Translations under genes and position numbers: made by a program | Shown: one piece after another, positions 5,246 through 64,000 of the stretch | How positions within the stretch are numbered: the first letter of the stretch is position 1 | How the letters are laid out: every line of letters begins with the position of its first letter | Notes under the pieces: model-generated | Database searches by the model: none | What the model saw: the letters and a program-made list of their open reading frames with translations, nothing else | What the model was told of the DNA's origin: nothing | Assembly: GCA_017454015.1 (NCBI GenBank) | Contig: JAFTDW010000006.1 | Coordinates: 8,452-72,451, forward strand | From: Bacteroidales bacterium | GTDB lineage: Bacteria > Bacteroidota > Bacteroidia > Bacteroidales > P3 | Reading direction: 5' to 3' | Length of the DNA: 64,000 nt

Positions 5246-5290
5246 CCCCCATAAACCCTTCCAACCCTAAAACCCTTTAACCCTCCCCCG

Positions 5291-6109: not shown

Positions 6110-6192
6110 TCATATCAGAGTAATCATAATGTAGAATAAAGTTAGAAATAATTTCTGCGGTATCTGCGAGAAAAAACTCAGCCAGCAAATAA

Positions 6193-6367: not shown

Positions 6368-6390
6368 TCACCAACAATTAATGGGAATTA

Positions 6391-13119: not shown

Positions 13120-13947
13120 ATGCCACTGTCGATACTTGATACCATGCAACCCATAGGCCTCGACGACATGAAAGCCGTGCGCCTTATGAAGCGTGTGGAT
13201 CAGAAATATATAGCGTCTGCCGCCATCCTGCCCCACCTGCTTGCCGCCGTGGCTGGTGACTATTATGTGCAGCAGATAGAGGGCAACCCCATAGCGCCAT
13301 ACCATACGCTCTACTTCGACACCTGCGACCTTGCCATGTACACCATGCACCACAACCGCAAGCTTAACCGCCAGAAGCTGCGCGTGCGGTGTTACCGCTC
13401 TACCCAGACAACTTTCTTCGAGATAAAGAACAAGGACAACAAGCGCAAGACCTCCAAGGTGCGCATCCCCATCGACTCGGCGCAGTTCGACACCTGCCTC
13501 GCGCTGCCCGAGGTGTCGGCATTCGTCAACGCCAACACCCCTTACGGCATAGCTCATGAAGTGGCGGGTCGGCAACGTGTTGCAGCGGACCTGCAGTCCG
13601 CCAACAGAAACCTCCTCTTTCCATGCCTTGAAAACTTCTTCTGCCGCATAACACTCGTCGACAAAGCCATGCACGAGCGTGTGACCATCGACCAAGGCAT
13701 ATCGTTCCACAACAGAGCAACCGGTCGCGACGCCGACATAGGCCATATCCTTGTCATCGAGGTGAAGCATGAGCAGGGAGCCCCACAGTCGGACATGGAG
13801 CAGGCGCTCCACGCCCTTCATGTCCTGCCTCGCCGCATGAGCAAGTATTGCATAGGCACAGCGCTCACCAACCAGGCGGCAAAGTCCAACCGCTTCAAGC
13901 CCAAACTGCTGTATATAGACAGATGCCGCTCAATCAGTATGCCATAA
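13120..13947 (+). CDS. VTC-domain (triphosphate-tunnel / polyphosphate-polymerase-like) protein
   Basis: R.D.KY near the N-terminus (KRVDQKYI) and LRVRCYR...FFEIKNK, resembling the tunnel-fold ExK-type strands of VTC/CYTH proteins. Confidence 0.6.
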   Translation: MPLSILDTMQPIGLDDMKAVRLMKRVDQKYIASAAILPHLLAAVAGDYYVQQIEGNPIAPYHTLYFDTCDLAMYTMHHNRKLNRQKLRVRCYRSTQTTFFEIKNKDNKRKTSKVRIPIDSAQFDTCLALPEVSAFVNANTPYGIAHEVAGRQRVAADLQSANRNLLFPCLENFFCRITLVDKAMHERVTIDQGISFHNRATGRDADIGHILVIEVKHEQGAPQSDMEQALHALHVLPRRMSKYCIGTALTNQAAKSNRFKPKLLYIDRCRSISMP

Positions 13948-14012
13948 CGTTGTGACATCACACCACAAATAACGATATAACGTTATAACGAAATAACAAC
14001 AGGTAACCTCTA

Positions 14013-14109
14013 AAAATTGCCCTGAAAGGGCATAAATCAATCAGCCCAATGGCAACGCCTTGGGTAAATCAGTAAGTTACAATTGCGCCCTGTAAGGGCA
14101 AAATCATTA
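14013..14109. repeat. Three-hairpin core of the same repeat family (copy C, no terminal inverted repeats)
   Basis: gccctgaaagggc, cccaatggcaacgccttggg and gccctgtaagggc occur in the same order and spacing as in copies A and B. Confidence 0.55.
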
Positions 14110-14150
14110 AAGACGAATTAATAGGACTCACCAACAAAAGAACTTATAAA

Positions 14151-14864
14151 ATGCTTTTACTCCAATCCGATTTCGACAGCAGCATAGCTGCCGAGTTCCA
14201 GCAAGGCGACCACTCCATCGACATCCTTGGTGTCCCCGTGTTCGACGGCCCGGGTCTTTGGGAGATGCTGATACGCTTCGGCATCAACCTGCTTGTCTGC
14301 TGGATAATCACCCACTTCCTTTATTACCGCAAGAGCCGCCGTCGCGACTACTACTTCACCTACATGCTCTTCAGCACTGCCATCTTCTTCATACTCTACC
14401 AGCTGCAGAACATGAAGATAGAGGTCGGCATTGCCCTGGGTCTCTTTGGTATCTTCAGCATGATACGCTACCGCACCGAGCAGCTGCCAATACGTGAGAT
14501 GACCTACCTCTTCGTGCTCATAGCAATAAGCATCATCAACGGGGCCGGCCTCACTTCGAGCTACACGGCATTCATAGTCACCAATCTGCTCTTTGTGTTG
14601 ATCATCACCTTGCTTGAGCTCTTGGGCTTCAGCAGCCGGAAAGCCACCAAGATCATCACCTACGAGAAGATAGAACTCATCAAGCCCGACCGCCGCGACG
14701 AGCTCATGGCCGACCTCCGTGCCCGCACCGGCCTCGACATCACCAAGATACAGATAGGCTCCATCGACTTCCTAAAAGACACCGCCTTCCTTAAAGTCAC
14801 CTACATCAGCGACGACCCCGAGCCCAACGACATCGACATGATAACCAAGTTCAAGAAGAAGTAA
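14151..14864 (+). CDS. Polytopic membrane protein (DUF4956-like, usual partner of bacterial VTC-domain genes)
   Basis: Several hydrophobic helices followed by a soluble C-terminal domain, immediately downstream of the VTC gene. The family name is unverified. Confidence 0.5.
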   Translation: MLLLQSDFDSSIAAEFQQGDHSIDILGVPVFDGPGLWEMLIRFGINLLVCWIITHFLYYRKSRRRDYYFTYMLFSTAIFFILYQLQNMKIEVGIALGLFGIFSMIRYRTEQLPIREMTYLFVLIAISIINGAGLTSSYTAFIVTNLLFVLIITLLELLGFSSRKATKIITYEKIELIKPDRRDELMADLRARTGLDITKIQIGSIDFLKDTAFLKVTYISDDPEPNDIDMITKFKKK

Positions 14865-15673
14865 TGCTTCAGGGAGGTATCAAAATGGAATCTGATAATA
14901 ATACTATATCCTTTTTAGGTAAGACCGACATTGGTCTGCAACGAGCAAACAATGAAGATGCTTTTGTTGTGCAACGGCTTGATGACAGCGCCGTTCTTGC
15001 TGTTGTCATTGACGGTGTCGGTGGATACGAGGGTGGAGAGGTTGCTGCTGAGATAGCGCAGAATGAGATACGTAATTACATGAAAGAGTTTACCAGCGGA
15101 GAGAAAATGGAGTTGTTGAAACAGGCAGTTGTCTGTGCCAACAATGCCATATATGAGCGTCGTCGGTTCGATTTCGCACGGCAAAATATGGGCTGTGTTC
15201 TTACGGCTATAGTAGTTGACTCTGCATGTGAAGTTGTATACATGGCGCATGTTGGCGATACTCGCTTATATCAGTACCGTTATGGTGAACTCTGTAAACT
15301 CTCGCACGACCATTCTTTGGTTGGTCAACTTGAGGATAGCGGCGAGTTGACAGAGGAGCAAGCCATGAAACATCCCCGACGCAACGTAATAAGTCGAGTG
15401 ATAGGCTCGGAATACCATACTGTTGACGATTCGGATTTTATTGAAGCGAACCAGTTTCGGTTGTTGCCCAACTCAATATTTATGCTTTGTTCCGATGGGT
15501 TGACAGATTTAATAACGTCACATCAGATAGCCTCTATATTGGAACGGGATCTAACCCTTGACGAGAAAGTGCAAACGCTTGTCAATTCAGCCAACGAGGC
15601 AGGCGGTAAGGACAATACGACGGTCGTTTTGGTGCAATACAATACCAAGGTGACCTCTAAAAATAGCCTCTGA
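14864..15673 (+). CDS. PP2C-family Ser/Thr protein phosphatase
   Basis: Ordered PP2C motifs: RANNEDAF, IDGVGGYEGGEVAA, HVGDTRLY, LCSDGLTD, GGKDNTTVVLV. The start overlaps the upstream stop (TAATG). An alternative start is the ATG at 14885. Confidence 0.9.
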   Translation: MLQGGIKMESDNNTISFLGKTDIGLQRANNEDAFVVQRLDDSAVLAVVIDGVGGYEGGEVAAEIAQNEIRNYMKEFTSGEKMELLKQAVVCANNAIYERRRFDFARQNMGCVLTAIVVDSACEVVYMAHVGDTRLYQYRYGELCKLSHDHSLVGQLEDSGELTEEQAMKHPRRNVISRVIGSEYHTVDDSDFIEANQFRLLPNSIFMLCSDGLTDLITSHQIASILERDLTLDEKVQTLVNSANEAGGKDNTTVVLVQYNTKVTSKNSL

Positions 15674-15702
15674 GAGGCTAACTCTCAATTGCTTATGCCA
15701 TG

Positions 15703-15794
15703 AACTGAGGTCATGAGCACCTATGAAATAAAAACAAGGATAGCGAATAACTGAGGTCATGAGCACCTATGAAATGTAGACAAGGATAGCGAAT
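15703..15794. repeat. Tandem direct repeat, 2 x 46 bp
   Basis: Units 15703-15748 and 15749-15794 differ at 3 of 46 positions. Each begins with the hairpin catga-actgagg-tcatg. Confidence 0.85.
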
Positions 15795-15846
15795 AACGGG
15801 CATAATCAAAACAATGAATATTCAGAACCCGCTATAAAACTGTTGT

Positions 15847-16509
15847 ATGAAAACAAAATTGGAGCAAATCAGCAAGAACTCAGGAGTTGTCGCTGTCAAT
15901 GCGATAAAGTCGAACATTCTGTTAAAGCGGCTAATCAGAAGTAGTCTTGACATAGTATTGTTATGCGTTGTGCTGTGTCTTTGTTTCTCTTGCGGAACCT
16001 CTGTGGATAACAGTGGTGATAGTGTCGGGGATTTTGAGGATAGCGACTTGTCGGTCGTCGACTATCAGGTTCCAGATGGGTTGGAAGGTGAGTCCGACAG
16101 TGACACAGACTGTCCAATGGGTTGTTTTTTGAGCGAGGATTCCAACTATGTCTTGACATTGCAACGTTTGTCCAGTGACTCACCTGATAGTGCATACAGA
16201 GCCGTGATATATGACCGTGAAAGGTGGTATAAAGGGGAATGGATATGTGAACCGCTGTCGGTTCCTGCATATATTGGTTATGGTACGGTCTGCAGGTCGT
16301 CCTCTTTGTTGGAGTTCACATTCGACAATGGCTATATTGATTCTGATGGTATATGGCTACATCTAAGTTGCAGTGTTCCATGTGATTCTTTGATTATTGC
16401 TGCCGAAATACCTTTTTCGTATAGAGAGAAAGATGTTAATGTGCGTTTCAAGTCCTGTTCATGGGACAGTCTTAAACGATGGTGGCGCAACCCGATATGT
16501 GGAAACTGA
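15847..16509 (+). CDS. Acidic, Cys-rich putative lipoprotein (220 aa)
   Basis: Hydrophobic segment ending in the lipobox-like LCFSCG. AT-rich codon usage like the rest of the island. No motif recognised. Confidence 0.5.
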   Translation: MKTKLEQISKNSGVVAVNAIKSNILLKRLIRSSLDIVLLCVVLCLCFSCGTSVDNSGDSVGDFEDSDLSVVDYQVPDGLEGESDSDTDCPMGCFLSEDSNYVLTLQRLSSDSPDSAYRAVIYDRERWYKGEWICEPLSVPAYIGYGTVCRSSSLLEFTFDNGYIDSDGIWLHLSCSVPCDSLIIAAEIPFSYREKDVNVRFKSCSWDSLKRWWRNPICGN

Positions 16510-16618
16510 TATTTTTCCTACCATATAAAAAAAAAGTTGTAACTTTGTACGGATTAACATAAAATAGCATATATGGCGTAATACAGCAGAAACGTAATAA
16601 AATAAAGGACTAACCGCT

Positions 16619-16763
16619 CTTTATTCTCGCAGTAAGAATCTGGAAAATTCTAATGAATATGGGAATAAGTACGTGTGAGTTCACGCCTTGGGCGTGAGTT
16701 ATTCGCATTCTTATCTATATTCAGGGTATTCCAGAACCTTTACTGCAGATAAGGAGCATAAAG
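16619..16763 (+). other. Long imperfect palindrome (about 145 nt) in the leader of the vWA-like gene
   Basis: The centre is tcacgcc-ttg-ggcgtga at 16681-16697. Outer arms are ctttat...gcagtaa...tctggaa versus ttccaga...ttactgc...ataaag. Confidence 0.55.
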
Positions 16764-16815
16764 AATAATTCAGCGCCTTTTCTTTTTTTTGTCAAAATTC
16801 AAATAATTATCTGGT

Positions 16816-18303
16816 ATGAAAACACAAAGTTGCTTATGTCTGAAAAGACTCATGGTTTTCCTTATCGTAAACGCCATGCTGTTTATATCCTGTAGCAATG
16901 AACTGGATAAAACTATCCGTTCTGCTATAAGTGATGGTGTTATATCGAATGATGAATGGGAGAAGTTAAAAACTGAATCTCTCTCAACAGACCAATTCAT
17001 AGGTGAAGACGGTGGCATTGATACAGTAGAACTGAAAAACCATGTTGTGGAATATGCAAAAAGTCTGCGAGGTGTAGATAGTATTGTTTTTTCGAGTGAA
17101 GGAGAATCGGGATCCCCTATTTCTCCGATCTTGTTCAAATTTTTCCTTGAAAGAAGTGGTAGCATGATACCATACGATGCACCGAGTACAAATGGGTATT
17201 TTAAGATTGCTATAGCGGATTTGTTGTCTGCGGTGCCAAATAGTTGCGACGAAAACAACCTGATGTTTATTGTCAATAATAAGGTGACTCCTTTCCATAA
17301 AACATTCAAAGATTTTGTGCAGAGCTCTGATATAATGAAGGAGACAGATGGCTATGGAGATCCCAAATACACGGATTTCTCATGTATATTCGACTCTGTA
17401 TTGAACCGAACAAAAGATAACGAGGTAAGTATCCTTGTATCGGATATGATATACTCCGATAAGAACTATCAAAATAAGAGTCCGGAACGCATAACTGAGG
17501 AGGCCTCTCTTCTGACAAAAAAAATATTTCGTGGGCATGAGGATAAGGACATACTGATTATTAAGTTGAATTCTGGTTACAATGGTCAATATTATCCATA
17601 TAACAATCCCATTAAAGGAAACGTTTATCTTGGTAACCGACCGTATTATATGATGATAGTCGCTAAATCTGATGTTATGCATAGATTGTTCAATCTGCCC
17701 GAGTATAGTAGGTTCTGTGATTTTAAGCACCTAAAGGGATATGAAAACTATTATTGTTTTACCCGCCAGTCCGACAATCCCAAATATTCCATTCTGTTCA
17801 AGGGCAGTAGCCGTTTTAAGGCTGAGAAACAAAAAAAGACGGAGATACATAGTATCAAAAGACTTACTGCTGACCGCTCAGGGGAGACAAAATTAGTTGT
17901 TGCTGTTGACATGAGCTCCATTATTACAGAACCAGAATACTTGACAAATGTCCAAAACTATCAGGTCCAGTCAAAATCAGGCTTCGTTGTGTCTGATGTT
18001 AAAGCCATTGACAAGGCAGATATGCCTGGGGACATTTATCATTATGTTCCTACTGCGACACATCTGCTTGAACTGACGACAACAGAGGGAATAGTAAACG
18101 AAACAGTCAGTGTAAGTCTTATGAATAAGTTCCCTTTGTGGATAGAGAAATCATCAACAAACGACGACAGGAATACAAAAACACCAAGCTTTGCCAATAC
18201 TACCTTTGGCTTCAAAAGTATGATGTATGGAATATATGAAGCCATATACCCTACCATTAAGCCTCCTGTTTATTATGAACTGATACTGAATGTCAAAAAG
18301 TAA
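16816..18303 (+). CDS. vWA-like lipoprotein (495 aa)
   Basis: Lipobox (LFISCS). MIDAS-like ERSGSM at nt 17149-17166, with downstream T (YTDFSC) and SD (ILVSDMIY) at vWA-like spacing. Confidence 0.5.
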   Translation: MKTQSCLCLKRLMVFLIVNAMLFISCSNELDKTIRSAISDGVISNDEWEKLKTESLSTDQFIGEDGGIDTVELKNHVVEYAKSLRGVDSIVFSSEGESGSPISPILFKFFLERSGSMIPYDAPSTNGYFKIAIADLLSAVPNSCDENNLMFIVNNKVTPFHKTFKDFVQSSDIMKETDGYGDPKYTDFSCIFDSVLNRTKDNEVSILVSDMIYSDKNYQNKSPERITEEASLLTKKIFRGHEDKDILIIKLNSGYNGQYYPYNNPIKGNVYLGNRPYYMMIVAKSDVMHRLFNLPEYSRFCDFKHLKGYENYYCFTRQSDNPKYSILFKGSSRFKAEKQKKTEIHSIKRLTADRSGETKLVVAVDMSSIITEPEYLTNVQNYQVQSKSGFVVSDVKAIDKADMPGDIYHYVPTATHLLELTTTEGIVNETVSVSLMNKFPLWIEKSSTNDDRNTKTPSFANTTFGFKSMMYGIYEAIYPTIKPPVYYELILNVKK

Positions 18304-18336
18304 TAATTATTAATCTAAATTAAAAACTTAAATATC

Positions 18337-18795
18337 ATGAAAAATCCCAAGAATTCAAAAAAAACAGACTGGATATGGCTGATGGCAGGTCTTACAGTCA
18401 CTGCCTTGTTCTTGATTTTTAGTACAAGTGTCTATGAATTGTTATATTACGATGGGGAATTTTCCAATGAAATGTATAATAAAAATATGTATCTTGTTGT
18501 TGCTGGGTTAACCTCCCTTGTCGTATGGTCTACGGCTATTCTGTATTATTGGATCATTGATCATTTCGAAAGGTGGTATCATTGGTTGGTCGCCGTTGTA
18601 TTGGTGGTTGTACTATCTCCAGTTGTTGTGTTTTCACATTGTGCTGGCTACTTCTATGATAGCAACCTCGATGAACTTATATCGCCATTGGTTAATTTCA
18701 ATATCATTAATACAATAGTGGCGTTAGTGCTCTTTTTTATTGTTTGTCTCTCAGTAAAGCATCTTAGCCGCCATTGTTCATCAACCCCATTTTAA
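18337..18795 (+). CDS. Small membrane protein with four predicted TM helices (152 aa)
   Basis: Four hydrophobic stretches of about 20 aa (WIWLMAGLTVTALFLIF; LVVAGLTSLVVWSTAILYYWII; WLVAVVLVVVLSPVVVF; IINTIVALVLFFIVCLSV). Confidence 0.6.
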   Translation: MKNPKNSKKTDWIWLMAGLTVTALFLIFSTSVYELLYYDGEFSNEMYNKNMYLVVAGLTSLVVWSTAILYYWIIDHFERWYHWLVAVVLVVVLSPVVVFSHCAGYFYDSNLDELISPLVNFNIINTIVALVLFFIVCLSVKHLSRHCSSTPF

Positions 18796-18845
18796 TCAAT
18801 AGTGACATCAACGTTTTTAATAGCATAACTTAAAACATTAACAAT

Positions 18846-20435
18846 ATGAGATTATTTGTATTTGCAATAGGTGGCACAGGCTCGCGAGTACTCACCTCCT
18901 TGATAATGATGCTGGCAGCTGGTGCCAGACCTAAAGACAACAATGGAAGATCTATAAATAATTTGTCCATTGTCCCAATTATCATCGATCCGCACGAAAC
19001 CAACGATGCCCTAACTAAAGTTGAAGAACTTTTGAGAAGGTATCGTACCATGCACCGCAGAATCCACGGGGATAATCCAAACAATGAAGGCTATTTTGGC
19101 GTAAAAATAGAAACGCTCCAAGAAGTCGAGCCCCAACGCGTTAATAATGACACTTTCTTTTTCAAAATGACAAAAGTCAGTGAAAGTGCATTTAGTAAAT
19201 TCATCGACATAGAGACAATGGAACTAACTAATAAGCTTTTTGCCAAGATGCTATTTTCACAGGATGAATTAAACACAAAGATGGAAGAGGGCTTTTATGG
19301 TTCGCCAAATATCGGGTGCATTGCGTTAAACGAGTTCAGAAAGTCTCCTGACTTTAATGCTTTCAGAGCTGCTTATAGTGAAGGGGACAGGATTTTCTTC
19401 ATCGGTTCTATTTTTGGTGGTACTGGGGCGTCGGGTTTGCCACTATTCATTTCATCTATTCGAGAACTTGTCAATCTTGATAATGGCGACGGTGCCGCCG
19501 ATGGCAGGGTCAACTGTGCAGAAGCTCCTATCGGAGCTCTTATTGTCATGCCATATTTCAGTATTGCCAATAATAATGGTGGAGCAGCTGGCGGAACCCA
19601 AATAAGAGATAGCGAATTTATTGTGAAAACTAAATCTGCTTTGCGCTACTACCACTCCAATCTCAATAGATACATCAACAGGACATACTACATATCCGAC
19701 CCGAAGGGTACTGCAGGATTTACTTATGATCCAGGTGGAGAAGGGCAAAGAGAAAACAAAGCACACATTGTAGAATTTGCTGGTGCATTAGCCATGTTCG
19801 ATTTTCTTGCTATAAATGACGATGGTTTAAACGTCAATAATCCAGATGGCGGTGAAAGAATAACCGCAGTGGCGCCACTATATAAGAGTTATGGATTGAA
19901 CACAGATGATGCATATATTCATTTTGCTGGTTTGTCTAGACAAACCAACCGGGTGATATTGAATGCAATGATGGGTTTCTATATGTTAAGGCAATTTATG
20001 AAGAATCACATGGGGGATATGCTTACTAAACCCTTTGCAAATCAATACGATAAGAATCTTACAGAAGCCTTATATAGAGAAGATGAAATAACTGGGATAT
20101 TTAATATGTTTGACGAATGGATTAGTCAAATGAAGGCTCATGGCAATGGAGCTAACAATCTCCAACTGTATGGTGATTATAGCGCACAAGATAAGGATTT
20201 CTCTAACTTGTTCTTTGGCTCGCCAGAAACCAAAACATCACGTCTTTTGGGACTCAAAGGCTCTGTGAAAATAAATGATGTTGTAAAAGCTCTAAACGAG
20301 GCCGCAGAAATCATAGGCAATATGGATTCGCCTAATAATGGTGAGGTTGCGTATGCTAGGTGGTATAATGTCGCCTACAGGGCAATGAATAACATAATTG
20401 ACAATAAATTTGATATAACAACTCTAATACAATAA
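18846..20435 (+). CDS. Divergent tubulin/FtsZ-superfamily-like GTPase (529 aa)
   Basis: N-terminal AIGGTGSRV (GGTGS = nt 18870-18884) and FGGTGASG (nt 19416-19436) match the T1 loop and the [SAG]GGTG[SA]G T4 signature. Confidence 0.55.
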   Translation: MRLFVFAIGGTGSRVLTSLIMMLAAGARPKDNNGRSINNLSIVPIIIDPHETNDALTKVEELLRRYRTMHRRIHGDNPNNEGYFGVKIETLQEVEPQRVNNDTFFFKMTKVSESAFSKFIDIETMELTNKLFAKMLFSQDELNTKMEEGFYGSPNIGCIALNEFRKSPDFNAFRAAYSEGDRIFFIGSIFGGTGASGLPLFISSIRELVNLDNGDGAADGRVNCAEAPIGALIVMPYFSIANNNGGAAGGTQIRDSEFIVKTKSALRYYHSNLNRYINRTYYISDPKGTAGFTYDPGGEGQRENKAHIVEFAGALAMFDFLAINDDGLNVNNPDGGERITAVAPLYKSYGLNTDDAYIHFAGLSRQTNRVILNAMMGFYMLRQFMKNHMGDMLTKPFANQYDKNLTEALYREDEITGIFNMFDEWISQMKAHGNGANNLQLYGDYSAQDKDFSNLFFGSPETKTSRLLGLKGSVKINDVVKALNEAAEIIGNMDSPNNGEVAYARWYNVAYRAMNNIIDNKFDITTLIQ

Positions 20436-20442
20436 TCAAGTC

Positions 20443-23400
20443 ATGACAACACTAGAGTATCGTGAAAATGGCAATCCGGGATGGACTGCATGCAATGAAT
20501 ATACAGAACAACAGATAAATGCTATTCTAAACCCCAATAAGGTGGATTCCACAAAGATTTCTGTTCCATCGCCTTTTGCGCGGTTCGATTTGGTTCAGAA
20601 GGCTTTCTCTTGTCTGGCGGGAAATGCAAATGGATCTGAGCCCGACGACATAAAGCGTGTCTCCAATGCTCTCGATATGTATGAACTTTTTTATGAGAGT
20701 GCCGGTGGCGGGAACTTAAATATAGTAGAATGGCAAAAAAACGTAGCCATCGGCGAATTGCTTGACGGAAAATCCCTCCAGCATGAATTATATGGTGATG
20801 CCTTGAACCTATACATGGGTTTTGAGAATTATGGTTTCAGAGGAGATAATGTGGTAATTCACATAATTACTGATGAAAATGGGGATCCTATTGGCTGTAC
20901 ATCACCAACGTCAATGTTCTTGTCTGCCCCAGAATATGATTGTAAGCCGTTGGATAGGATAAGAATTGAGGGTGATAAGCCACTGTTTGGAGGTCCTCGC
21001 ATGTTGTGGGAACGTGACAATGACTTCATTCTGTACGTTTACCGGCAAGAGGCATATATGAGGGGTTGTGGAATCCAAATGGAAACACTACAGTCTTTCT
21101 TTACATACCTCGCAAGCCAGCGTGAAGTGATTAAGACTAAAAAGCTGGATATATACAGGATAATTAATAATCTTGTGTACGGCGAGAATGAAATGGAAGC
21201 GGATTATGAAAGAACAGATTGCTATGTTTTAGGTTGTGGGTTGTTCACCCGTAGAAGACAAAATGTTGCTGACAGGATTCGTAATACAAGTGACTTTACC
21301 ATACATTCAGACAAAACCAATAGTAGACCGTTGGTCTTGACCAATAGTAGCGCGGCTACATATAATGGTTGGAACTATCTTTCAGAAACTATCAGGTTCG
21401 ATAGCAACGAACATAAGATAAATTATCAGCAAATAAGATTAGATGAGACCCGTCATAAGTTGCCTGGTACAAATGTTGATTATGATGAAGGTTGGCTTTG
21501 TGAATGTGATTTTTTGTCTGATGTACTGGTTCAATTGCCATACCCCTTGGATTGTACCCATTTCTTCAATGGCAATATGGATACACCAATCAGACAGACT
21601 AAATATTATCTGCCACCAATCCGTTCAAAATATTTTGAGTTTTTCAATGTGGATACCCTTTATGATTCCCAAAATAGAAATGACAGAAATGGTAATGCAA
21701 AAAAACTAGAAATCAAAGAGGTTGAGAAAAATGGGAAACTCGAAAAGGTGGTGGTTAGTCTATTGATTCCTGTATCCCAAGGCCGCAGAATGGTTAAGCT
21801 TGTTAGAGAATATTTACCTGGTGAATTTGAATTAAACACAGCCGGTAGTCTCAGAAATGATTCTGCTGTGGGTCATATCGCCAAGTGTCCTATTGTTGTT
21901 AATATCTTTCCTTTTGTGCGTCTGGAAACCAACAATTATTACAAAATCCAGATGATTGATTTATTCAATAATGGAAAAGGTGTAATTGTAACGATGCATG
22001 CCGTTGGTAATGGTGAAATTGAATGGCAAAGTGAATATAATCGTTCAGCAAAAAATACTTATAAAACTTATTATTACGCTTTGAATGAGGCGTTTGACTA
22101 TTTGCGGCTAAAAATAACTAATGGCCAAGTTTGCCACGAATCCATTTTAATTCCTAAGTGGGAAGGTGCTGTTGATCAGGGGAATATTAGGTATAAGTTT
22201 GCATTTGACTTTGGTACAACCAACACCCATATCGCTGTCCGAAATATGGATAATGGTGAATTTATGGATTTCGCTATTGGGAGGTCTATGGTGTCAACAT
22301 TCAACCAAAACCAGGCAAGGAGGAATGTTTATAATCAGGAAGAACAGAAGAATTTTGATTTTTTTGAAATATTGCAGAAACAAGAATTCGTTCCTAATGA
22401 AATAGCAAATGGGGCTATATGCAAGTTCCCAATCAGGACTGTGGCTATGCGTAATAGAAACCTTGAAATAGATGGAACTGTACCAGAGGCCTTGGTGCAT
22501 GTAAATATTCCTTTTATATATGGTATAGAAGACTATGGCACTCAAGAGAATTTTCTTGTACCGAATCTGAAATGGGCAAGAGAAGATGCTGCCAATAAGT
22601 TATCCAGCGCGTTCATTGAGGAGTTGGTTGTTTTGGCAAGGATTTTTGCTTTAGAGCATGATGGCAATTTGGCTGCGTGTTCATTTGTGTGGACGTATCC
22701 ATTAAGCATGGTTTCGGGAGTAGTCAATAGGTTTAATGAAAAATGGCAAAGATATTTTGGGAAATATTTCTTGGGTAAGGAAAGAGCAGTCCCAAATAAT
22801 TGTGTGAAGAAAATGTCGGAATCTATAGCCCCAGTTTTCTACTACATGGATGATGGAGAGACATTAGAGAATATGACCTTGTCAATAGATATAGGTGGGG
22901 GAACATGTGATGTTGTCATAAAAAATGGTGACAAGATTAGTTTTACATCGTTCCAATTCGCGGCTGATGTAATCTTTGGTGCAGGGAAAGTCGGCAATAA
23001 CCCGATGATAAAAAAACACTATCATTCTGGAGACTTAAAAGGTATCTGTGAAAAGAAAATGCCAGAGGAGGCGTATAATTCCATTTTAGCAGATGATAGT
23101 GATTCCTCAGAAGCAAATTCATTTTTGTTCGGCCTTGAGAGCAATCCGCGGCTTGCAAACGAACCACTCGAGAGAAAGTCGTACAATGCAAAACTTAATG
23201 GTGATAATTATCGCAAAGTTATTTTCCTCTATTTTTATGCGTCGATTATTTATTATTTGACTAAGTTATTACAGGACTACAGATATCCGCAACCATGCAC
23301 TTTTATGTTTAGTGGCACGGGATCAAAAATACTGAGCATTATTGGGAATAATGATAATATAAGAAAATATACCACTGATTTGTTGAACTTGTTTTCAGAA

Positions 23401-23946
23401 GGAGAGTTCAAGTATACTCGTAATATAGATATCTTGATAGAGAGCGAAGAACCTAAGCAAATCACCGCAAAAGGTGCTCTCCATGAAGTGGCCGCTGATG
23501 ATAAACAAGACCCCGCAACTTTCTTTGCGGATCCTGATAATGTTGAAAGAGCGACTATTCACTACTCGTTGTACTATAATGAAGATAAGGATGGTGGGCC
23601 TATTCCATTGAATAATAAAGATTTGAAAAATGATGATCTTTTGAAAAATGTTTGCGAAAAAGTCAAAGCCTTCAATGAGGTGTTTTTAAATTGTATCAAT
23701 AATTTGAGCTTTGAAGATAAATATCTTTGCGATAAAAAAGGTATAAGTAAAATGTCTGAAATCCTCCGAGCTGAAAATGACAGGTTGCTTGACTATATGA
23801 AAACAGAAATAGAAAAAGAAGATAGAGTCATAATTCAAACTGATCCCCAAAGTATGTTTAAGGGGGCACTCTTCTTCTATCCAATAAAACAATTAATACA
23901 GCGCACAATAATGCCTAATTTTAATGAAGACCTTGCAGAAAATTAA
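20443..23946 (+). CDS. 1167-aa protein: unrecognised N-terminal half plus C-terminal Hsp70/actin-fold (ASKHA) ATPase-like domain
   Basis: Phosphate-1 AFDFGTTNTHIAV (nt 22201-22239), phosphate-2 LSIDIGGGTCDVVI (nt 22879-22920) and adenosine-like FMFSGTGSKIL (nt 23302-23334) occur in canonical order and spacing. Confidence 0.7.
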   Translation: MTTLEYRENGNPGWTACNEYTEQQINAILNPNKVDSTKISVPSPFARFDLVQKAFSCLAGNANGSEPDDIKRVSNALDMYELFYESAGGGNLNIVEWQKNVAIGELLDGKSLQHELYGDALNLYMGFENYGFRGDNVVIHIITDENGDPIGCTSPTSMFLSAPEYDCKPLDRIRIEGDKPLFGGPRMLWERDNDFILYVYRQEAYMRGCGIQMETLQSFFTYLASQREVIKTKKLDIYRIINNLVYGENEMEADYERTDCYVLGCGLFTRRRQNVADRIRNTSDFTIHSDKTNSRPLVLTNSSAATYNGWNYLSETIRFDSNEHKINYQQIRLDETRHKLPGTNVDYDEGWLCECDFLSDVLVQLPYPLDCTHFFNGNMDTPIRQTKYYLPPIRSKYFEFFNVDTLYDSQNRNDRNGNAKKLEIKEVEKNGKLEKVVVSLLIPVSQGRRMVKLVREYLPGEFELNTAGSLRNDSAVGHIAKCPIVVNIFPFVRLETNNYYKIQMIDLFNNGKGVIVTMHAVGNGEIEWQSEYNRSAKNTYKTYYYALNEAFDYLRLKITNGQVCHESILIPKWEGAVDQGNIRYKFAFDFGTTNTHIAVRNMDNGEFMDFAIGRSMVSTFNQNQARRNVYNQEEQKNFDFFEILQKQEFVPNEIANGAICKFPIRTVAMRNRNLEIDGTVPEALVHVNIPFIYGIEDYGTQENFLVPNLKWAREDAANKLSSAFIEELVVLARIFALEHDGNLAACSFVWTYPLSMVSGVVNRFNEKWQRYFGKYFLGKERAVPNNCVKKMSESIAPVFYYMDDGETLENMTLSIDIGGGTCDVVIKNGDKISFTSFQFAADVIFGAGKVGNNPMIKKHYHSGDLKGICEKKMPEEAYNSILADDSDSSEANSFLFGLESNPRLANEPLERKSYNAKLNGDNYRKVIFLYFYASIIYYLTKLLQDYRYPQPCTFMFSGTGSKILSIIGNNDNIRKYTTDLLNLFSEGEFKYTRNIDILIESEEPKQITAKGALHEVAADDKQDPATFFADPDNVERATIHYSLYYNEDKDGGPIPLNNKDLKNDDLLKNVCEKVKAFNEVFLNCINNLSFEDKYLCDKKGISKMSEILRAENDRLLDYMKTEIEKEDRVIIQTDPQSMFKGALFFYPIKQLIQRTIMPNFNEDLAEN

Positions 23947-24016
23947 GAGCCGTTTGAAGCAGAAAATGCAAGATTTGTCAAGTTATAAGATGTGTCATTA
24001 ATAAACCACAAAGATA

Positions 24017-24814
24017 ATGAAAAGAATAGTTGTTTTATTGCTGGCTGCATTTTTGGTAAACATCAATGTTTGTTGCAAGGATTTGCACAGACCATCCTCG
24101 CGCAATGTGGATAGCGTGCAAGCCGTTGAAACAGATAGTTCAAACGATCATCCCTCCCAAGATAGAGACAATAAAAATAAGAATAAGAGTTTCCCCAATT
24201 TGTCCTTTATAACTGCAATACTGGCTTTGGCGTTTTCCATATATCTCTTTTCGGAACTTAATAAATTGAAAAATGACGTACAGGCAAAGTTTAAACGTAG
24301 AAAAGAGGCTCATGTCTTATTGGAAAATAAAATGTCGAAATTTGAGAACGATTTGGAAAAGAATAGGGGCGTGATTACCGAGCTTAAGCGGCAAATGGCC
24401 GAAAGCGTCAGCCATATTAAAGAAAGCCAGAGCAATACGGTTTCGGAAAACAGTCACATGGATATTCCTCAGCCATCGGATAGTGTAAATAAAAAACAGG
24501 AAAAAAGACCAAGTGAGCTATATTGTGGGGCACCCGTCTCCAGCTGTTTTGAAGTCTCTGAAAGTTACTATCCAGGAGCACTGTATAAAATTGTAGTAAA
24601 TGGTAGTGGTACTGGAGATTTTGAGTTTGTTGATAGCATTGAAGCACTGGAGTGTGCGCAGATGTCTAGAACATCGTTTCTTGAGCCAGCTTGCAATGTT
24701 ATTAACAATGATATAGCGCGCTTTGACCACATATATACAGAGCGCAATGGAAAAGTTAAGAAAACTAACGATGGATGGGTGATTGTTGAGAAAGCTGTTG
24801 TACGCCTCGTATAA
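24017..24814 (+). CDS. Membrane protein with signal/TM segments, a coiled-coil stretch and a Cys-containing C-terminal domain (265 aa)
   Basis: N-terminal hydrophobic segment, a second TM (FITAILALAFSIYLF), then a heptad-like KLKNDVQAKFKRRKEAHVLLENKMSKFENDLEKNRGVITELKRQM. Confidence 0.5.
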   Translation: MKRIVVLLLAAFLVNINVCCKDLHRPSSRNVDSVQAVETDSSNDHPSQDRDNKNKNKSFPNLSFITAILALAFSIYLFSELNKLKNDVQAKFKRRKEAHVLLENKMSKFENDLEKNRGVITELKRQMAESVSHIKESQSNTVSENSHMDIPQPSDSVNKKQEKRPSELYCGAPVSSCFEVSESYYPGALYKIVVNGSGTGDFEFVDSIEALECAQMSRTSFLEPACNVINNDIARFDHIYTERNGKVKKTNDGWVIVEKAVVRLV

Positions 24815-24863
24815 TAAATCTGTACCAGAGGAGTAAGTTGATTTTAGTCAAATGGAATGATAC

Positions 24864-26018
24864 ATGAAACAAACTTGTAGAAATTGCAAGACTGTTATTG
24901 AGATAGACGAAAGCGAGCACAAAGAGGGCGAAACTGTTTTGGTGAAGTGTTCAGTATGTGGTACAATGACTGAATTTAACATACCAGTGTCGCAACCGGA
25001 TGATTCGAAAAAGTCTGATAACAATGGTATGGCTGTTATTGTATCGGAAGGGGTGCCTATTGCGCCGAATGGTAAAGACAAGAAAAATGATAACGGCAAG
25101 CAAAAGAAGGGTTCAGTTGAAACAAAGGTGAATGATAAGAGCCATAAGCCTGAAGTAAAAGAACAGAGTGCAGATTCTGCCATGTCAGGGAAAGGTGGCT
25201 GGACTCTGGGAGAAGGAAAGAACTCAGGCCACGTTCCCCCGCGCCCCCCCACCCCAAAAAATTTTTTGATAGTGTCAATTGTTATTACTGGTTTAGCACT
25301 TATTGTGGGAGGTTTCTTTCTCTACAAAAACGTATTCCTTCCCCGGAAGATTGATGCAGAGGCTCCAAGATATTATACTATAGCAGAACCATACCTTGCA
25401 CTACGTTCCACCCCATCTGCGGGAGGAGTTTACAATAAAGTTGACGAACTCTATTATGGCACGGAACTAATAACATATGATGTCGACTCAAAATGGTTGA
25501 AAGTCAAAACGGAAAAGACTTTTGACAAAAAGGAACAAAAAAGTGGTTACGTTGCTGCTGAACATGCTTTAAGCAAGCGTGATTTTTTCATTTTAAACAG
25601 CATCTGGGGCGATTATGAAAGTAAAAAAGTGATCGAGACAACAAAATGCAGAAAGGCAATTCTAAACTATTATAATAAGAACGGCTATATTGGTTCAATA
25701 TCCAAAGAAGAATTGGAGGCAGCTGAAATAGGAATAACCCCCAGCCCGGCAAATCAATGGCAGATTTTTAGCAAGAGTCCTAAGTCCCCCAACAACACCA
25801 CATATTTTAAAAGGCTGATAAATCCCAATTCAAAATTCACTGATTTCGCTGTCATTATACAAAACATTAATACAGGGAGAAGAAAACTTCTTTATTTCTA
25901 CTTTCTGGATGACGAGACGCCTGTTCTGTATCGTGACATATATGCGCCCAGAACTGGCTATATCAAACAAATAAAGCTTTTACCTAATCAAGAACTCTCT
26001 GTCGAATATACACCATGA
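24864..26018 (+). CDS. Zn-ribbon / Lys-rich linker / single TM / SH3b-like domain protein (384 aa)
   Basis: CRNC...(19 aa)...CSVC at nt 24879-24968, TM FLIVSIVITGLALIVGGFFLY, and an SH3b-like ALRSTPS...GTELITYDVDSKWLKVKT...GYVAAEH. Confidence 0.55.
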   Translation: MKQTCRNCKTVIEIDESEHKEGETVLVKCSVCGTMTEFNIPVSQPDDSKKSDNNGMAVIVSEGVPIAPNGKDKKNDNGKQKKGSVETKVNDKSHKPEVKEQSADSAMSGKGGWTLGEGKNSGHVPPRPPTPKNFLIVSIVITGLALIVGGFFLYKNVFLPRKIDAEAPRYYTIAEPYLALRSTPSAGGVYNKVDELYYGTELITYDVDSKWLKVKTEKTFDKKEQKSGYVAAEHALSKRDFFILNSIWGDYESKKVIETTKCRKAILNYYNKNGYIGSISKEELEAAEIGITPSPANQWQIFSKSPKSPNNTTYFKRLINPNSKFTDFAVIIQNINTGRRKLLYFYFLDDETPVLYRDIYAPRTGYIKQIKLLPNQELSVEYTP

Positions 26019-26590
26019 GCAAGAGAATTATAAGAATTGGCCTGTTTGTATTTTTTTTCATGGTTGTTGTTGCGCCGTATGTTGGTCTATATTATGTTGC
26101 AGGTTGGTACAAAAACAAACTGAAAACAGTGGAACGAGCATCTGTAGTGATTGTTAATAAAGAGACAATGACATTGTCTGTTATTGACTATAGGGGTGTA
26201 GAGAAGTCGCGATACCAGATGGCATGTGGGCAGAATTATGGAAACAAAAAAGCAATCGGCGACAAGAGGACTCCAGAAGGGGTGTTCCACGTTGACGGTA
26301 TACGTGATGCGTCAACTTGGACACATGACTTTAAAGATGGCAATGGAGAAATTCAGGGGGCATATGGTCCATGGTTTATTCGTTTGGATACACCTGGTTT
26401 TAATGGCATAGGCATACATGGCACCCATCAGCCAGAGTCCATCGGTAATAGAGCTACAGAAGGCTGTATAAGATTGAAAAACGAAGATGTCAGCGCCCTT
26501 AAAGAGATTGTTTATATAGGCATGCCTGTTATAATTATTCCTTCAACACATGATGCTGTTGCAATGTTAGATAAAAATGAATGCAATTAA
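26015..26590 (+). CDS. L,D-transpeptidase (YkuD-domain) protein with N-terminal membrane anchor
   Basis: Catalytic motif GIHGTHQPESIGNRATEGCIRL at nt 26411-26476. There is a 4-nt overlap with the upstream gene. Confidence 0.85.
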   Translation: MSKRIIRIGLFVFFFMVVVAPYVGLYYVAGWYKNKLKTVERASVVIVNKETMTLSVIDYRGVEKSRYQMACGQNYGNKKAIGDKRTPEGVFHVDGIRDASTWTHDFKDGNGEIQGAYGPWFIRLDTPGFNGIGIHGTHQPESIGNRATEGCIRLKNEDVSALKEIVYIGMPVIIIPSTHDAVAMLDKNECN

Positions 26591-27206
26591 ACATAAAACG
26601 TCATTGTTAGTTACGGTGCTTTCACTGCTAATAGCATGCACCAACTGTCTGTATTCATGTGTAAGTTGCCATGATCCCAAGCAGTTAGAACGTGATCTGC
26701 GGCTTATTTCACAATGTATAGAAGATGAATACGCAACAGAAAACACTCAGTCGCACAATAGCTATGACGATAAAGGGAATAGACGTAGACGTGCAAGAGG
26801 AAGGCGCGTGAAATGCAATCGAGAAGGAAAGTGGTTATTAGTGTTTTATGCTTGGGGTTCGGGCCATCAAATAGCAGGCCATAAAAGTACTTTTGGGCAT
26901 GCGTTTGTGGATATACCAACAATAGGGCCTGTCGGGTATTCGGGCAAGGTGACGAACCATGCAGAAGAAGTAAAGTATGCAACATACCGTTGTGTAGTTC
27001 CTGTGTCGGATGACCAGCTACAACGTGCAATAAACAAATACTGGGATTGGGTGAATAATACGCCTGAATATGAGTTAATGAATTACGATTGCACCACATT
27101 CACACTTGACATAGCTGATGCTGCTGGTGTGAAGTATGGCCTCAGAGCAGTGACTTGGTCTCCAGCTGGTTTTTTGCGAGCGTTGATAGAACACAATCCA
27201 CAATAA
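26577..27206 (+). CDS. Putative lipoprotein with a possible His...Cys hydrolase (permuted NlpC/P60-like) signature
   Basis: Signal/lipobox region. GHAFVDIPTIG followed about 70 aa later by NYDCTTFTLDIADAAG. The enzymatic call is inference only. Confidence 0.4.
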   Translation: MNAIKHKTSLLVTVLSLLIACTNCLYSCVSCHDPKQLERDLRLISQCIEDEYATENTQSHNSYDDKGNRRRRARGRRVKCNREGKWLLVFYAWGSGHQIAGHKSTFGHAFVDIPTIGPVGYSGKVTNHAEEVKYATYRCVVPVSDDQLQRAINKYWDWVNNTPEYELMNYDCTTFTLDIADAAGVKYGLRAVTWSPAGFLRALIEHNPQ

Positions 27207-27224
27207 ACAAACACTTTATAGAAT

Positions 27225-28235
27225 ATGAAAACAGGTGATAATGGGTTGTGTTTGTGCTTGTTTGCATTTGTTTTGTCGATTTCGGCCTGCACACATCCTG
27301 AACAAGATGGATGTATGGTCGCATTGAAATACAACAAATGCCAAGACGATTTCGTTGCCAAACTGCGAAATGATAGAGATGCATTTGTGAATGGATTTGA
27401 TTATCGTCAGTACGATAATAGGGAAGCGGCAGAAAACGAATTGAGAGAGATTCTTAGTGAAAATATCTCATTGTATGAGCATCAGATAATGTCCGCAAAT
27501 AAGGTCTACGATGAGTACCGTAGAAGATATACGAAAAACGCCCGGAAAAAATTCCAGTTCAATAATTCCTATTTGTTGGCGATAAATGATGTCGATTTTA
27601 ATCCAGAGAGAGTTATCTGTCAAATAATGGAGAGTGATAAGGTGTTAGCCTGCATGAGGCATTTGATGCCTCTGCGCCCCAAGATAGCTCAGATGTGCCG
27701 CGACCTCAAAGGTCGTGAACTGGTAGAACGCGGAGATTCCAGATATTTTAACGATGACTGGAAGTTGGTTATCGGTGAAGAGTGTGTGGATAAACTTATT
27801 GTGACAGACTCGTCAAAAAACAATGATAAGTGGAAATATTATGTGAAAATGCGTGTTAGAGATGGAGGTCATTATTTTAATGCTGTGGCAGAGATTGTAT
27901 ATACAGCAAGCGGATTAGACAAGGAATGGACATTGACAGATGTGATCAGCCAGAACCTGTCAATATACAAGACTCATATATATCGCAGCTCAATACCTCC
28001 GCCCAAGATTGAAGTTGTAAAGGACTATTGGGGGGATCCAATAAATAAAGATGTTACCATAAGTAGTACATGTGATTCGCCCTTGATAGTGGGTGGTGAA
28101 ATGTGGGTGGATGATGACATAGGATGGAAAAAGTTCGTCTTGACTCTAAGTTCGTTAGGTTCCTTTACAATACATTGTGGTTACCGTGTTGACCCCCTGC
28201 CGGTAATTCGTCTTGATTTTGTGGAAAAGAAATAA
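27225..28235 (+). CDS. Hypothetical lipoprotein (336 aa)
   Basis: Lipobox (LSISACT). Last tightly spaced gene of the island operon. No motif recognised. Confidence 0.5.
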   Translation: MKTGDNGLCLCLFAFVLSISACTHPEQDGCMVALKYNKCQDDFVAKLRNDRDAFVNGFDYRQYDNREAAENELREILSENISLYEHQIMSANKVYDEYRRRYTKNARKKFQFNNSYLLAINDVDFNPERVICQIMESDKVLACMRHLMPLRPKIAQMCRDLKGRELVERGDSRYFNDDWKLVIGEECVDKLIVTDSSKNNDKWKYYVKMRVRDGGHYFNAVAEIVYTASGLDKEWTLTDVISQNLSIYKTHIYRSSIPPPKIEVVKDYWGDPINKDVTISSTCDSPLIVGGEMWVDDDIGWKKFVLTLSSLGSFTIHCGYRVDPLPVIRLDFVEKK

Positions 28236-28510
28236 CCTATAGTCTGTCATTGGATTTTGATTCTAATATATGTATTGTTGGTGTTTATGCACATCATGTG
28301 TGCGGACGGGATGTCCTGTGCAACATACTTAGTATTCGTTTTGGTTCCAGCGCATTAGGAAAAGGTAGGACACGGCGTAGGTAGCGGCTTCTTTGGTCGA
28401 CGCCTCTTCTAGTGAATAGGTGGTGTAATGGGCTTTCTGCAATGGGCGTATGTTTTTTGCTGTAATTATCGAAAAACAATTATTTGGTTTAACATAATTG
28501 GATATCTTTA

Positions 28511-28807
28511 ATGTTAATTTGGAATACCACACCAATAATAGTTTTGGCAGACGAAATTTCTGTCAAGGTACGGCAGATAGATGCTGCAATAGACTGGGAG
28601 AACTTATCTCCTGAAAAGAATGAAGCATTGACAAAAGCCAAGATGGAGTTGCTTTCTAAAATATCCTTTTCAAAACTTGAGGCAGAGAGTGGCCGTGTCG
28701 GTCATTATGTTGATGTTCAGGAAATCACGAATAAAATTTGCCATGCTTTTGGCACTTATCTATCTGTTGTTGAACAGACGTTTCCATATTGGAACGTTAA
28801 TTATTAA
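28511..28807 (+). CDS. Hypothetical small protein (98 aa)
   Basis: AT-rich ORF. Its stop codon lies inside the first bases of repeat copy B. No motif recognised. Confidence 0.3.
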   Translation: MLIWNTTPIIVLADEISVKVRQIDAAIDWENLSPEKNEALTKAKMELLSKISFSKLEAESGRVGHYVDVQEITNKICHAFGTYLSVVEQTFPYWNVNY

Positions 28808-28976
28808 TGAAAATGAATACTAAATTCTTTACCTAATTATTCTGGAATGCCCTGCAAGGGCATAAATCCAACAGCCCAGGGCACCGCCCTGGGTATAAAC
28901 GGCATCAAAATATATGCGCCCTGTAAGGGCAAAATCAATTTTAGGTATAACATTTAGCAGTCATTTAATGAAAAAT
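28805..28976. repeat. MITE/REP-like intergenic element, copy B, at the right edge of the AT-rich island
   Basis: Aligns end to end with 6193-6367, with a handful of substitutions and one 1-nt indel. Same orientation. Confidence 0.75.
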
Positions 28977-63995: not shown

Positions 63996-64000
63996 TTGCA

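Follow-up and report, generated by a model that had tools for sequence, protein, structure and literature searches.

A large, undescribed family of predicted ASKHA-fold ATPases encoded beside a tubulin-like GTPase in an envelope-associated gene cassette of Bacteroidota

A stretch of 64,000 nucleotides from a Bacteroidales genome (NCBI GenBank assembly GCA_017454015.1, contig JAFTDW010000006.1, positions 8,452 to 72,451 of the forward strand; hereafter the window) was analyzed with a focus on the gene at 20443-23946 of the plus strand, a single long open reading frame (ORF) that encodes a protein of 1,167 amino acids (aa), named F0 here. F0 is a member of a large and undescribed family of ASKHA (acetate and sugar kinases/Hsc70/actin) proteins with a unique architecture, and its gene directly follows that of a divergent tubulin-like GTPase (F1). 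Based on sequence comparison and structure prediction, F0 is probably a large cytoplasmic ATPase subunit which acts as the ATP-driven partner of this GTPase within a conserved, mobile, and envelope-anchored cassette. The cassette is found in Bacteroidota and related bacteria of the Fibrobacteres-Chlorobi-Bacteroidetes (FCB) group. An earlier note made from the letters of this DNA had described the same ORF as a giant protein with an Hsp70/actin-like ATPase in its C-terminal half; the ORF and its motifs were confirmed, the assignment as an ASKHA-type ATPase domain was supported, and the protein is better called large than giant. The strictness of the coupling of F0 to F1 and to an envelope cassette, as well as the low-GC island in which they lie, had not been part of that note.

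A predicted ASKHA ATPase with a family-specific N-terminal half

The second half of F0 is predicted, from conserved motifs and a structural model, to be an ASKHA-fold ATPase domain with the full set of catalytic motifs intact. Conservation was examined in an alignment of 40 sequences (23-52% identity to the query) and in a more diverse set of 49 sequences. The phosphate-1, phosphate-2, and adenosine motifs quoted in the earlier note were recovered in the right order at residues 587-599, 813-826, and 954-964. In phosphate 1, neither alignment shows any variation at D589 and G591, and the 40-sequence one shows none at N594 either; in phosphate 2, D816, G818-G820, and D823 are invariant in both, joined by I817 and T821 in the 40-sequence alignment; and in the adenosine motif the corresponding residues are G958 (both) and S961 (40 sequences). 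Two additional motifs were recognized. E793 of the connect-1-like motif SESIAP, invariant in both alignments, was aligned by HMMER with the glutamate in INEPTAA of Hsc70. The connect-2-like motif EPKQITAKGAL, which we liken to the 'P..(V/I)A.GA' motif of Hsp70 and MreB, contains three residues that do not vary in either alignment (K1005, T1008, and G1011) and one, P1004, that is constant among the 40 sequences. Residues invariant among the 40 sequences mostly stay invariant among the 49, and the conservation of these predicted motifs is far beyond chance.

Comparison of the family profile with the Protein Data Bank (PDB) detected the nucleotide-binding domain (NBD) of Hsc70/Hsp70 (E=2.8e-5), with DIGGGTCD of F0 aligned to DLGGGTFD of Hsc70; this match is limited to Hsc70 residues 173-272. 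An AlphaFold2 model of F0 built on the 40-sequence alignment (predicted local distance difference test, pLDDT, 83.3; predicted template-modelling score, pTM, 0.73) has the duplicated RNase-H-like two-lobe fold and superposes on MreB 1jcf, the Hsc70 NBD, and actin. When the model was searched against the PDB with Foldseek, the top match was MreB 1jcf (E=1.1e-6; TMt, the TM-score normalized to the target, 0.49), and other matches included the Hsc70 NBD 6b1n (E=1.6e-6), DnaK, BiP, actin, and exopolyphosphatase (PPX); those to MreB, the Hsc70 NBD, DnaK, actin, and PPX had E between 1e-6 and 4e-5 and a probability of 1.00. The earlier note had staked its reading beforehand on the motifs falling on an ASKHA fold, and the AlphaFold2 model and Foldseek agree in placing them there.

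Weak Pfam matches point in the same direction. FtsA was matched by 14 of the 40 members, and further matches to Ppx-GppA, EutA, MreB_Mbl, HSP70, and BcrAD_BadFG were observed, all of which we take to be actin-fold (ASKHA) ATPase families; the family consensus gave a similar set. HSP70 (PF00012) was matched by only two of the 40 members, with E of at least 0.016, and the scores for FtsA and MreB were far below the Pfam and NCBIfam cut-offs. In fact, no match to a named family came near its curated cut-off, and most were restricted to the phosphate-2 region. F0 shares its motifs and predicted fold with the Hsp70/MreB/FtsA/actin branch of ASKHA proteins, but it scores below the threshold of every family in that branch and differs by a 580-aa N-terminal extension, a 150-aa helical tail, and large insertions in the core, among them a predicted helical IIB-like insert of about 100 aa after phosphate 2. 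In agreement with the earlier note, F0 has no canonical Hsp70 substrate-binding domain: in the model no beta-sandwich follows the NBD, and the tail is a helical bundle.

The N-terminal half of F0, about 580 aa, is unique to the family and kept throughout it. A family-specific alpha/beta domain was predicted at aa ~40-300, which carries the PSPFAR motif; no exception to P42, S43, P44, and R191 was seen in either alignment, whereas the invariance of R47 and T153-S154-P155 is limited to the 40 sequences. A separate AlphaFold2 model of this half reached a pLDDT of 78. For aa ~40-300 of this model, Foldseek found no structural neighbors in the PDB or BFVD, and a profile of the N-terminal half had no match in the PDB. 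For the beta-rich region at aa ~420-580, Foldseek returned weak matches, all of them immunoglobulin (Ig)-like (best E=8e-4), with TMt of about 0.5 against targets of the size of beta2-microglobulin. The statement of the earlier note that the first ~585 aa resemble nothing recognizable still holds for sequence, but it has to be qualified by these structural matches. Similarly, the unexplained C-terminal tail exists, but it comprises ~150 aa rather than the ~200 given before because the ASKHA core, including the connect-2-like motif, reaches residue ~1015. In the model the tail is helical over aa ~1058-1159, and it is the least conserved region of the protein. The order of domains would accordingly read, in predicted form, family-specific alpha/beta domain (PSP at 42-44), Ig-like beta-sandwich(es), ASKHA ATPase, and helical tail.

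The family is large. A word-index search yielded 43 homologs, nearly all of 1,140-1,200 aa, each unnamed or called 'hypothetical' and none with a precomputed Pfam domain. An exhaustive HMMER search with the 40-sequence profile against clusters at 50% identity detected at least 2,541 cluster representatives with E<=1e-3, of which 990 reached E<=1e-30; among the best 150, nearly all were end-to-end matches of ~1,100-1,300 aa. F0 is covered by no model of Pfam, NCBIfam, or PADLOC, and scans of the single sequence against these libraries and the PDB gave chance-level matches alone. A methyltransferase-like match at residues 497-551 (E ~2e-3 to 6e-3) and a PAD2 match (E=1.4) were discarded as noise. 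Relatives are named in NCBI either 'hypothetical protein' or 'acetate and sugar kinases/Hsc70/actin family protein', and one of them, UniProt A0ABU0UAR4 of Sphingobacterium zeae (1,133 aa), carries the name 'Virulence factor SrfB'. No description of the F0 family or of its cassette was found in the literature on Zorya, tubulin, Hsp70, SrfB, and ASKHA; that the ORF might be a well-annotated family of known function, which would have refuted the earlier note, was not borne out.

The neighboring tubulin-like gene and the conserved cassette

The gene neighborhood of F0 was compared in 27 related loci, which were collected from metagenomes, GTDB genomes, and IMG/VR and whose ORFs were clustered into families. 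F1 directly precedes F0 in all 25 loci with intact upstream DNA; the remaining two comprise a Rikenellaceae contig that begins at F0 and a locus (L024) with a Mu-like prophage upstream. In the window, the stop codon of F1 lies 7 nt upstream of the F0 start codon, and intergenic gaps are small across 16816-28235, with a longer one of 306 nt before 16816. Neither F0 nor F1 has a predicted transmembrane segment or signal peptide, which is consistent with a cytoplasmic location of both.

F1 is, by its sequence, a divergent member of the tubulin/FtsZ superfamily. It carries GGTGS and GGTGASG signatures, and its best PDB alignment covers the GGTG loop of CetZ 3zid. Among 26 family members, 19 matched Tubulin_2 (PF13809, the FtsZl1 model; best 1.9e-7) and eight matched Tubulin (PF00091; best 2.3e-8); the protein of the window itself matched PF00091 alone (E=0.013).

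The same order of genes, namely a protein of the F2 family, a small transmembrane protein, F1, and F0, was observed in Prevotella, Sodaliphilus, other Bacteroidales, Sphingobacterium, Hymenobacter, Solirubrum, Spirosoma, Rudanella, Flavobacterium, and Chitinispirillia. The small multi-pass membrane protein upstream of F1 is present across the loci with intact upstream DNA, and the F2-family protein in most of them. F2, a lipoprotein in the window, shows a conserved (E)RSGSM...T...SD pattern that resembles the metal ion-dependent adhesion site (MIDAS) of vWA domains (those of the von Willebrand factor A type), and its consensus has a weak match to DUF58 (E=0.005). None of 25 F2 members matched a VWA model of Pfam, the F2 profile was negative against the PDB, and hhalign comparisons with the integrin alphaL I-domain and vWF A1 were negative as well.

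Downstream of F0, the loci of Bacteroidales encode a bitopic protein (F4), usually a retropepsin-like protease, a zinc-ribbon/transmembrane/SH3 protein, and a YkuD-family L,D-transpeptidase, with 28-55% identity to the copies of the window. The zinc-ribbon/SH3 orthologs are 40-41% identical in L025 and L026 and 32% in L027, and those of YkuD 48-55% in all three. When judged by eye, F4 may have a coiled coil after its transmembrane segment, and its C-terminal domain may be shared, by comparison of consensus sequences, with the F12 protein of Hymenobacter and Solirubrum loci. The retropepsin-like aspartyl protease (Asp_protease_2/gag-asp_proteas), which recurs 3' of the bitopic protein in Bacteroidales, is missing from the cassette of the window. 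No OmpA-like protein was found in the cassette of the window.

In Cytophagales, Sphingobacteriales, Flavobacteriales, and Rikenellaceae, the last genes of the cassette encode instead a MotA-like (F5) and a MotB/OmpA-like (F6) protein; the former is present in all of the listed non-Bacteroidales loci and the latter in most. These proteins matched MotA_ExbB and, weakly, MotB_plug/OmpA in Pfam, and their best PADLOC matches were ZorA (8.6e-9) and ZorB (4.6e-13). F5 appears, from its consensus inspected by eye, to have a long coiled-coil tail. The cassette consists of a constant core and variable accessory genes downstream, and in none of the loci is it linked to dcw or mre genes.

Several neighbors of the cassette in related loci were recorded. 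In L026, at 1-2548 and 19664-20620, a 1,197-aa AAA/nSTAND3/trypsin protein, an FGE-sulfatase-domain protein, and a patatin-like phospholipase lie beside it; in L025, its neighbor is a DUF1016_N/YhcG_C protein, which we take to be a PDDEXK-type nuclease; and in L001, KilA-N and AAA_14/DUF4143 genes were observed.

A low-GC island

The whole cassette lies in an island of ~14 kb with sharp edges, whose GC content is ~0.36-0.41 (~38%) compared with ~0.55-0.58 (~56%) in the flanks; the F0 gene has 37.8% GC and the window 51.6%. All island genes are on the plus strand, and the GC skew changes sign at ~14,800. Because of this composition, the cassette looks horizontally acquired in this genome. The flanks contain ordinary chromosomal genes (VTC/DUF4956, GH20, Omp28, and type IX secretion system cargo), and no integrase, tRNA gene, or att site of the island was found in the window. 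Repeats of 23 and 31 nt at ~14.0 kb and ~28.9 kb were considered as att sites and rejected, as they recur at 6305; they belong to a dispersed intergenic element resembling repetitive extragenic palindromic (REP) sequences, with short GC-rich hairpins, whose 23-mer has three exact copies in the window (none expected by chance), two of them bracketing the island.

Besides the cassette, the island holds a PP2C phosphatase gene and several ORFs without counterpart in related loci. PP2C is not considered part of the cassette core because it is absent from all 27 related loci. At 13120-15673, VTC-domain and DUF4956 genes are followed by PP2C with a 1-nt overlap, and the GC content drops exactly at this junction; PP2C may have been acquired together with the island and now abut a native operon. 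A 46-nt unit is tandemly duplicated (93% identical) at 15703-15794, between the PP2C gene and a 220-aa ORF. At the right end of the window (62001-64000), the GC content falls to 0.43, and a further low-GC segment may begin there.

The possibility that the cassette is phage-borne was also considered. It is carried by eight IMG/VR contigs; in the one inspected in detail, L024, positions 1-6970 belong to a transposable phage of Bacteroides, Mu-like and with 95% identity to MT835523.1, that ends ~1 kb upstream of F0 and has replaced the lipoprotein, transmembrane, and tubulin-like genes. The viral listing of such contigs is explained by a prophage inserted into the cassette, which in L024 lies outside the phage end. 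A tblastn search of 50,697 phage records gave no match to the cassette, its sole 'plasmid' match was a 1.77-Mb Prevotella replicon, and nothing closely matching the island DNA was found among plasmids. With no GenBank phage or true plasmid match, carriage by phage was rejected.

Table 1. Positions of F0, its motifs, the cassette genes, and other features (window coordinates unless a locus is named)
Feature	Position	Strand	Basis or remark
F0 gene, whole ORF, 1,167 aa	20443..23946	+	ATG at 20443, stop ends 23946
PSPFAR motif, aa 42-47, N-terminal alpha/beta domain	20566..20583	+	alignments
Beta-rich region, aa ~421-580, predicted Ig-like beta-sandwich(es)	21703..22182	+	model secondary structure, Foldseek
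Predicted ASKHA (actin/Hsp70/MreB-like) ATPase core, aa ~584-1015	22192..23487	+	Foldseek, family profile vs PDB
Phosphate-1 motif AFDFGTTNTHIAV, aa 587-599	22201..22239	+	alignments
Connect-1-like motif SESIAP, aa 792-797	22816..22833	+	HMMER alignment, invariance
Phosphate-2 motif LSIDIGGGTCDVVI, aa 813-826	22879..22920	+	alignments
Adenosine motif FMFSGTGSKIL, aa 954-964	23302..23334	+	alignments
Connect-2-like motif EPKQITAKGAL, aa 1003-1013	23449..23481	+	alignments
C-terminal tail, aa 1016-1167	23488..23943	+	model, alignment
F2 lipoprotein, 495 aa	16816..18303	+	lipobox LFISC
F3 small membrane protein	18337..18795	+	4 predicted transmembrane segments; F8 in other clades
F1 tubulin/FtsZ-superfamily GTPase, 529 aa, cytoplasmic	18846..20435	+	
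F4 bitopic protein	24017..24814	+	signal or lipoprotein peptide, one transmembrane segment, conserved C-terminal domain
Zinc-ribbon/transmembrane/SH3 protein	24864..26018	+	Pfam Zn_ribbon_4, SH3_3
YkuD-family L,D-transpeptidase	26015..26590	+	Pfam YkuD E=1e-17
Low-GC island holding the whole cassette	14850..28850	.	GC profile
PP2C phosphatase	14864-15673	+	NCBIfam Stp1 E=3.5e-63, just below curated cut-off
Dispersed REP-like intergenic element	6305-6327, 14018-14106, 28848-28937		hairpins TGCCCTGnAAGGGCA, TGCGCCCTGTAAGGGCAAAATCA
Retropepsin-like protease copies	L001 14509-15054; L002 9607-10152; L025 14775-15362; L026 14834-15379; L027 15933-16559		
Cassette end with MotA-like protein and, in most loci, MotB/OmpA-like protein	L008 14208-16529; L010 15024-16951; L011 4043-6363; L013 15320-17824		
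Further loci with MotA-like cassette end	L009, L014, L016, L018, L019, L021, L023, L024		

Possible function and comparison with known systems

The closest described context of the cassette is the class of operons that combine FtsZl1, vWA, and OmpA-like genes. Operons in which FtsZl1/Tubulin_2 is joined by vWA and OmpA-like genes have been proposed to serve membrane remodelling (Makarova and Koonin 2010, PMC2875224), and in Magnetospirillum a 1,626-aa COG0443 (DnaK) gene adjoins FtsZl1 and vWA genes (PMC2875224, supplement 5). No ASKHA-like family of 1,150 aa is present among the associated families A1-A2 and B1-B9 of that study, and its Bacteroides FtsZl1 example has a different neighborhood from the cassette described here (PMC2875224). 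Like these operons, the cassette places a divergent tubulin/FtsZ-like GTPase beside envelope proteins, with OmpA-like partners in related loci; a Tubulin_2-type gene adjoins F0, but F1 of the cassette is only marginally detected by PF13809/PF00091, F2 is no more than a candidate vWA partner, and the OmpA-like gene is absent from the cassette of the window.

Conflict systems with tubulin and HSP70 components have been predicted as well (Kaur, Burroughs, Iyer and Aravind 2020, PMC7159879). These DO-GTPase/GAP1 systems likewise contain tubulin or HSP70 NTPases with vWA-type or membrane components, and a constant core with variable accessories; however, the tubulin and HSP70 themes are separate there, the systems occur mainly in Actinobacteria and Firmicutes, and their HSP70s are canonical and accompanied by GrpE and DnaJ, in contrast to the 1,150-aa fusion seen here (PMC7159879). 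The defining genes of these systems were not recovered: scans with Pfam, NCBIfam, and PADLOC recognized no TRAFAC P-loop GTPase among the cassette genes, nor any GAP1 gene, for which the scanned libraries hold no model. The third comparison is with Zorya. The MotA-like and MotB/OmpA-like pair at the end of related loci has its best matches in ZorA and ZorB, and ZorA has a long coiled-coil tail like the one that F5 appears to carry; the pair may represent a stator of the Zorya type that was taken into the tubulin/ASKHA module. Models of ZorC, ZorD, ZorE, ZorF, and ZorG were matched in no PADLOC scan, and the combination that defines Zorya (ZorA and ZorB with ZorC/D, ZorE, or ZorF/G) is not present in the cassette of the window.

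Taken as an ATP-driven partner of the tubulin-like GTPase, F0 would form together with F1 a membrane-proximal, nucleotide-driven assembly, in which its part may be that of a clamp, as in Hsp70, or of a co-polymer or scaffold, as in actin, and contacts with partners or with the membrane may be made by the N-terminal half. The suggestion of the earlier note that this half is a sensor or scaffold domain under control of the ATPase is plausible. The assembly might be coupled through the membrane proteins to the periplasm and peptidoglycan, by way of the YkuD and SH3 proteins here and of OmpA-like and MotAB-like proteins in other clades. Several points weigh against this picture or its extension to defense. 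The physical interaction of F0 and F1 is deduced from strict gene adjacency; compared with ASKHA structures, F0 reaches moderate TM-scores (TMt of at most ~0.5), because of the large insertions in the core; the F2 lipoprotein, a vWA candidate by the likeness of its motif, matched no VWA model; no recognizable toxic effector (nuclease, TIR, etc.) is encoded in the cassette; PADLOC system models match none of its genes in the window; and the ZorAB-like pair is absent from the locus of the window and, in its relatives, far below the NCBIfam cut-offs for Zorya.

With regard to the role of the cassette, an envelope-triggered function in conflict or anti-phage defense, following a Zorya-like logic, is a serious possibility that falls a little short of being probable, and a non-defense function in envelope or peptidoglycan remodelling is entertained more tentatively. 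The specific proposal that a new system of anti-phage defense or conflict has the cassette at its core, which is compatible with F0 being the partner of F1, appears possible but leans toward unlikely. According to it, the lipoprotein and the membrane proteins, with the ZorAB-like motor in some clades, would sense a perturbation of the envelope by an invader, and the signal would trigger GTP/ATP-dependent assembly of F1 and F0, so that infection is blocked or the cell is killed. Horizontal acquisition in a low-GC island, ZorA/ZorB-like partners in relatives, the constant core with variable downstream accessories, the conflict-type neighbors in L026, L025, and L001, and the precedent of predicted tubulin, HSP70, and vWA conflict systems (PMC7159879) speak for it. 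On the other hand, it is at odds with the lack of PADLOC matches and of classical effector domains in the cassette of the window, with the sub-threshold scores and local absence of the ZorAB-like pair, and with ordinary chromosomal flanks, and MotAB-type stators power non-defense machines too. A still more specific version, in which the cassette is a hitherto unrecognized type of prokaryotic machine, a new Zorya-like system of Bacteroidota against phages or other invaders that uses tubulin-fold and actin/Hsp70-fold NTPases as the inner-membrane output of an envelope-spanning sensor, is doubtful; the sensor would be powered by the ZorAB-like proton motor in some clades, and the 'effectors' would be cytoskeletal-type NTPases rather than nucleases.

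It is also unlikely, in our judgment, that the cassette is a non-defense tubulin/actin-like cytoskeletal module for local remodelling of peptidoglycan or membrane. The recurrence of the YkuD L,D-transpeptidase and SH3 protein downstream of F0, the OmpA-like peptidoglycan-binding partners in other clades, the lipoprotein and membrane proteins of the cassette, and the 'membrane remodelling' hypothesis for FtsZl1 (PMC2875224) would fit such a module, but island-like composition and accessory status speak against a core role in morphogenesis, no linkage to dcw or mre was observed in any locus, and the low GC content suggests recent horizontal acquisition in this genome.

The relationship to SrfB that had been offered for comparison in the earlier note was not supported. 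SrfB is a protein of about 1,000 aa encoded in the srfABC operon, and the idea that F0 is a distant member of this 'virulence factor' family and works like it draws on similar length and on the name of A0ABU0UAR4. PF07520 (SrfB) was matched neither by the query, the 40 members, and three further relatives (about 43 proteins) nor by the family consensus, and for A0ABU0UAR4 itself it was unmatched even at E up to 10; the speed filters of HMMER remove the majority of matches whose E exceeds about 0.1. In addition, no SrfB-named NCBIfam model was matched by the family, NCBI names its relatives as hypothetical or Hsc70/actin family proteins, and the neighbors of F0 are a lipoprotein, a four-transmembrane protein, a tubulin-like GTPase, and a bitopic protein rather than SrfA and SrfC, which makes this assignment improbable. 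That F0 is simply a diverged Hsp70 chaperone with a housekeeping role or a cytoskeletal protein of the MreB/FtsA type is hardly credible, since its best structural and profile matches to MreB, Hsc70/DnaK, and FtsA are outweighed by the missing substrate-binding domain, sub-threshold matches centered on the phosphate-2 region, the conserved 580-aa N-terminal half, and location in an acquired island rather than in a dnaK/grpE, mreBCD, or dcw locus.

As a probable ATP-driven partner of F1, F0 represents at least 2,500 clusters of proteins of ~1,150 aa, common in Bacteroidota of gut, rumen, and soil, for which Pfam and NCBIfam provide no model. In each protein, recognizable relatives are lacking for more than half of the length, and this part includes an N-terminal domain that contains invariant residues. 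The family brings tubulin-fold and predicted actin/Hsp70-fold NTPases together as an obligate prokaryotic gene pair inside an envelope cassette. The prediction of membrane remodelling by FtsZl1 operons made in 2010 and that of tubulin/HSP70 conflict systems made in 2020 can now be tested in cultured carriers of the cassette such as Sphingobacterium and Hymenobacter. Should its role lie in defense, the immune systems of Bacteroidota, which are poorly charted, would gain one with a new mechanism.

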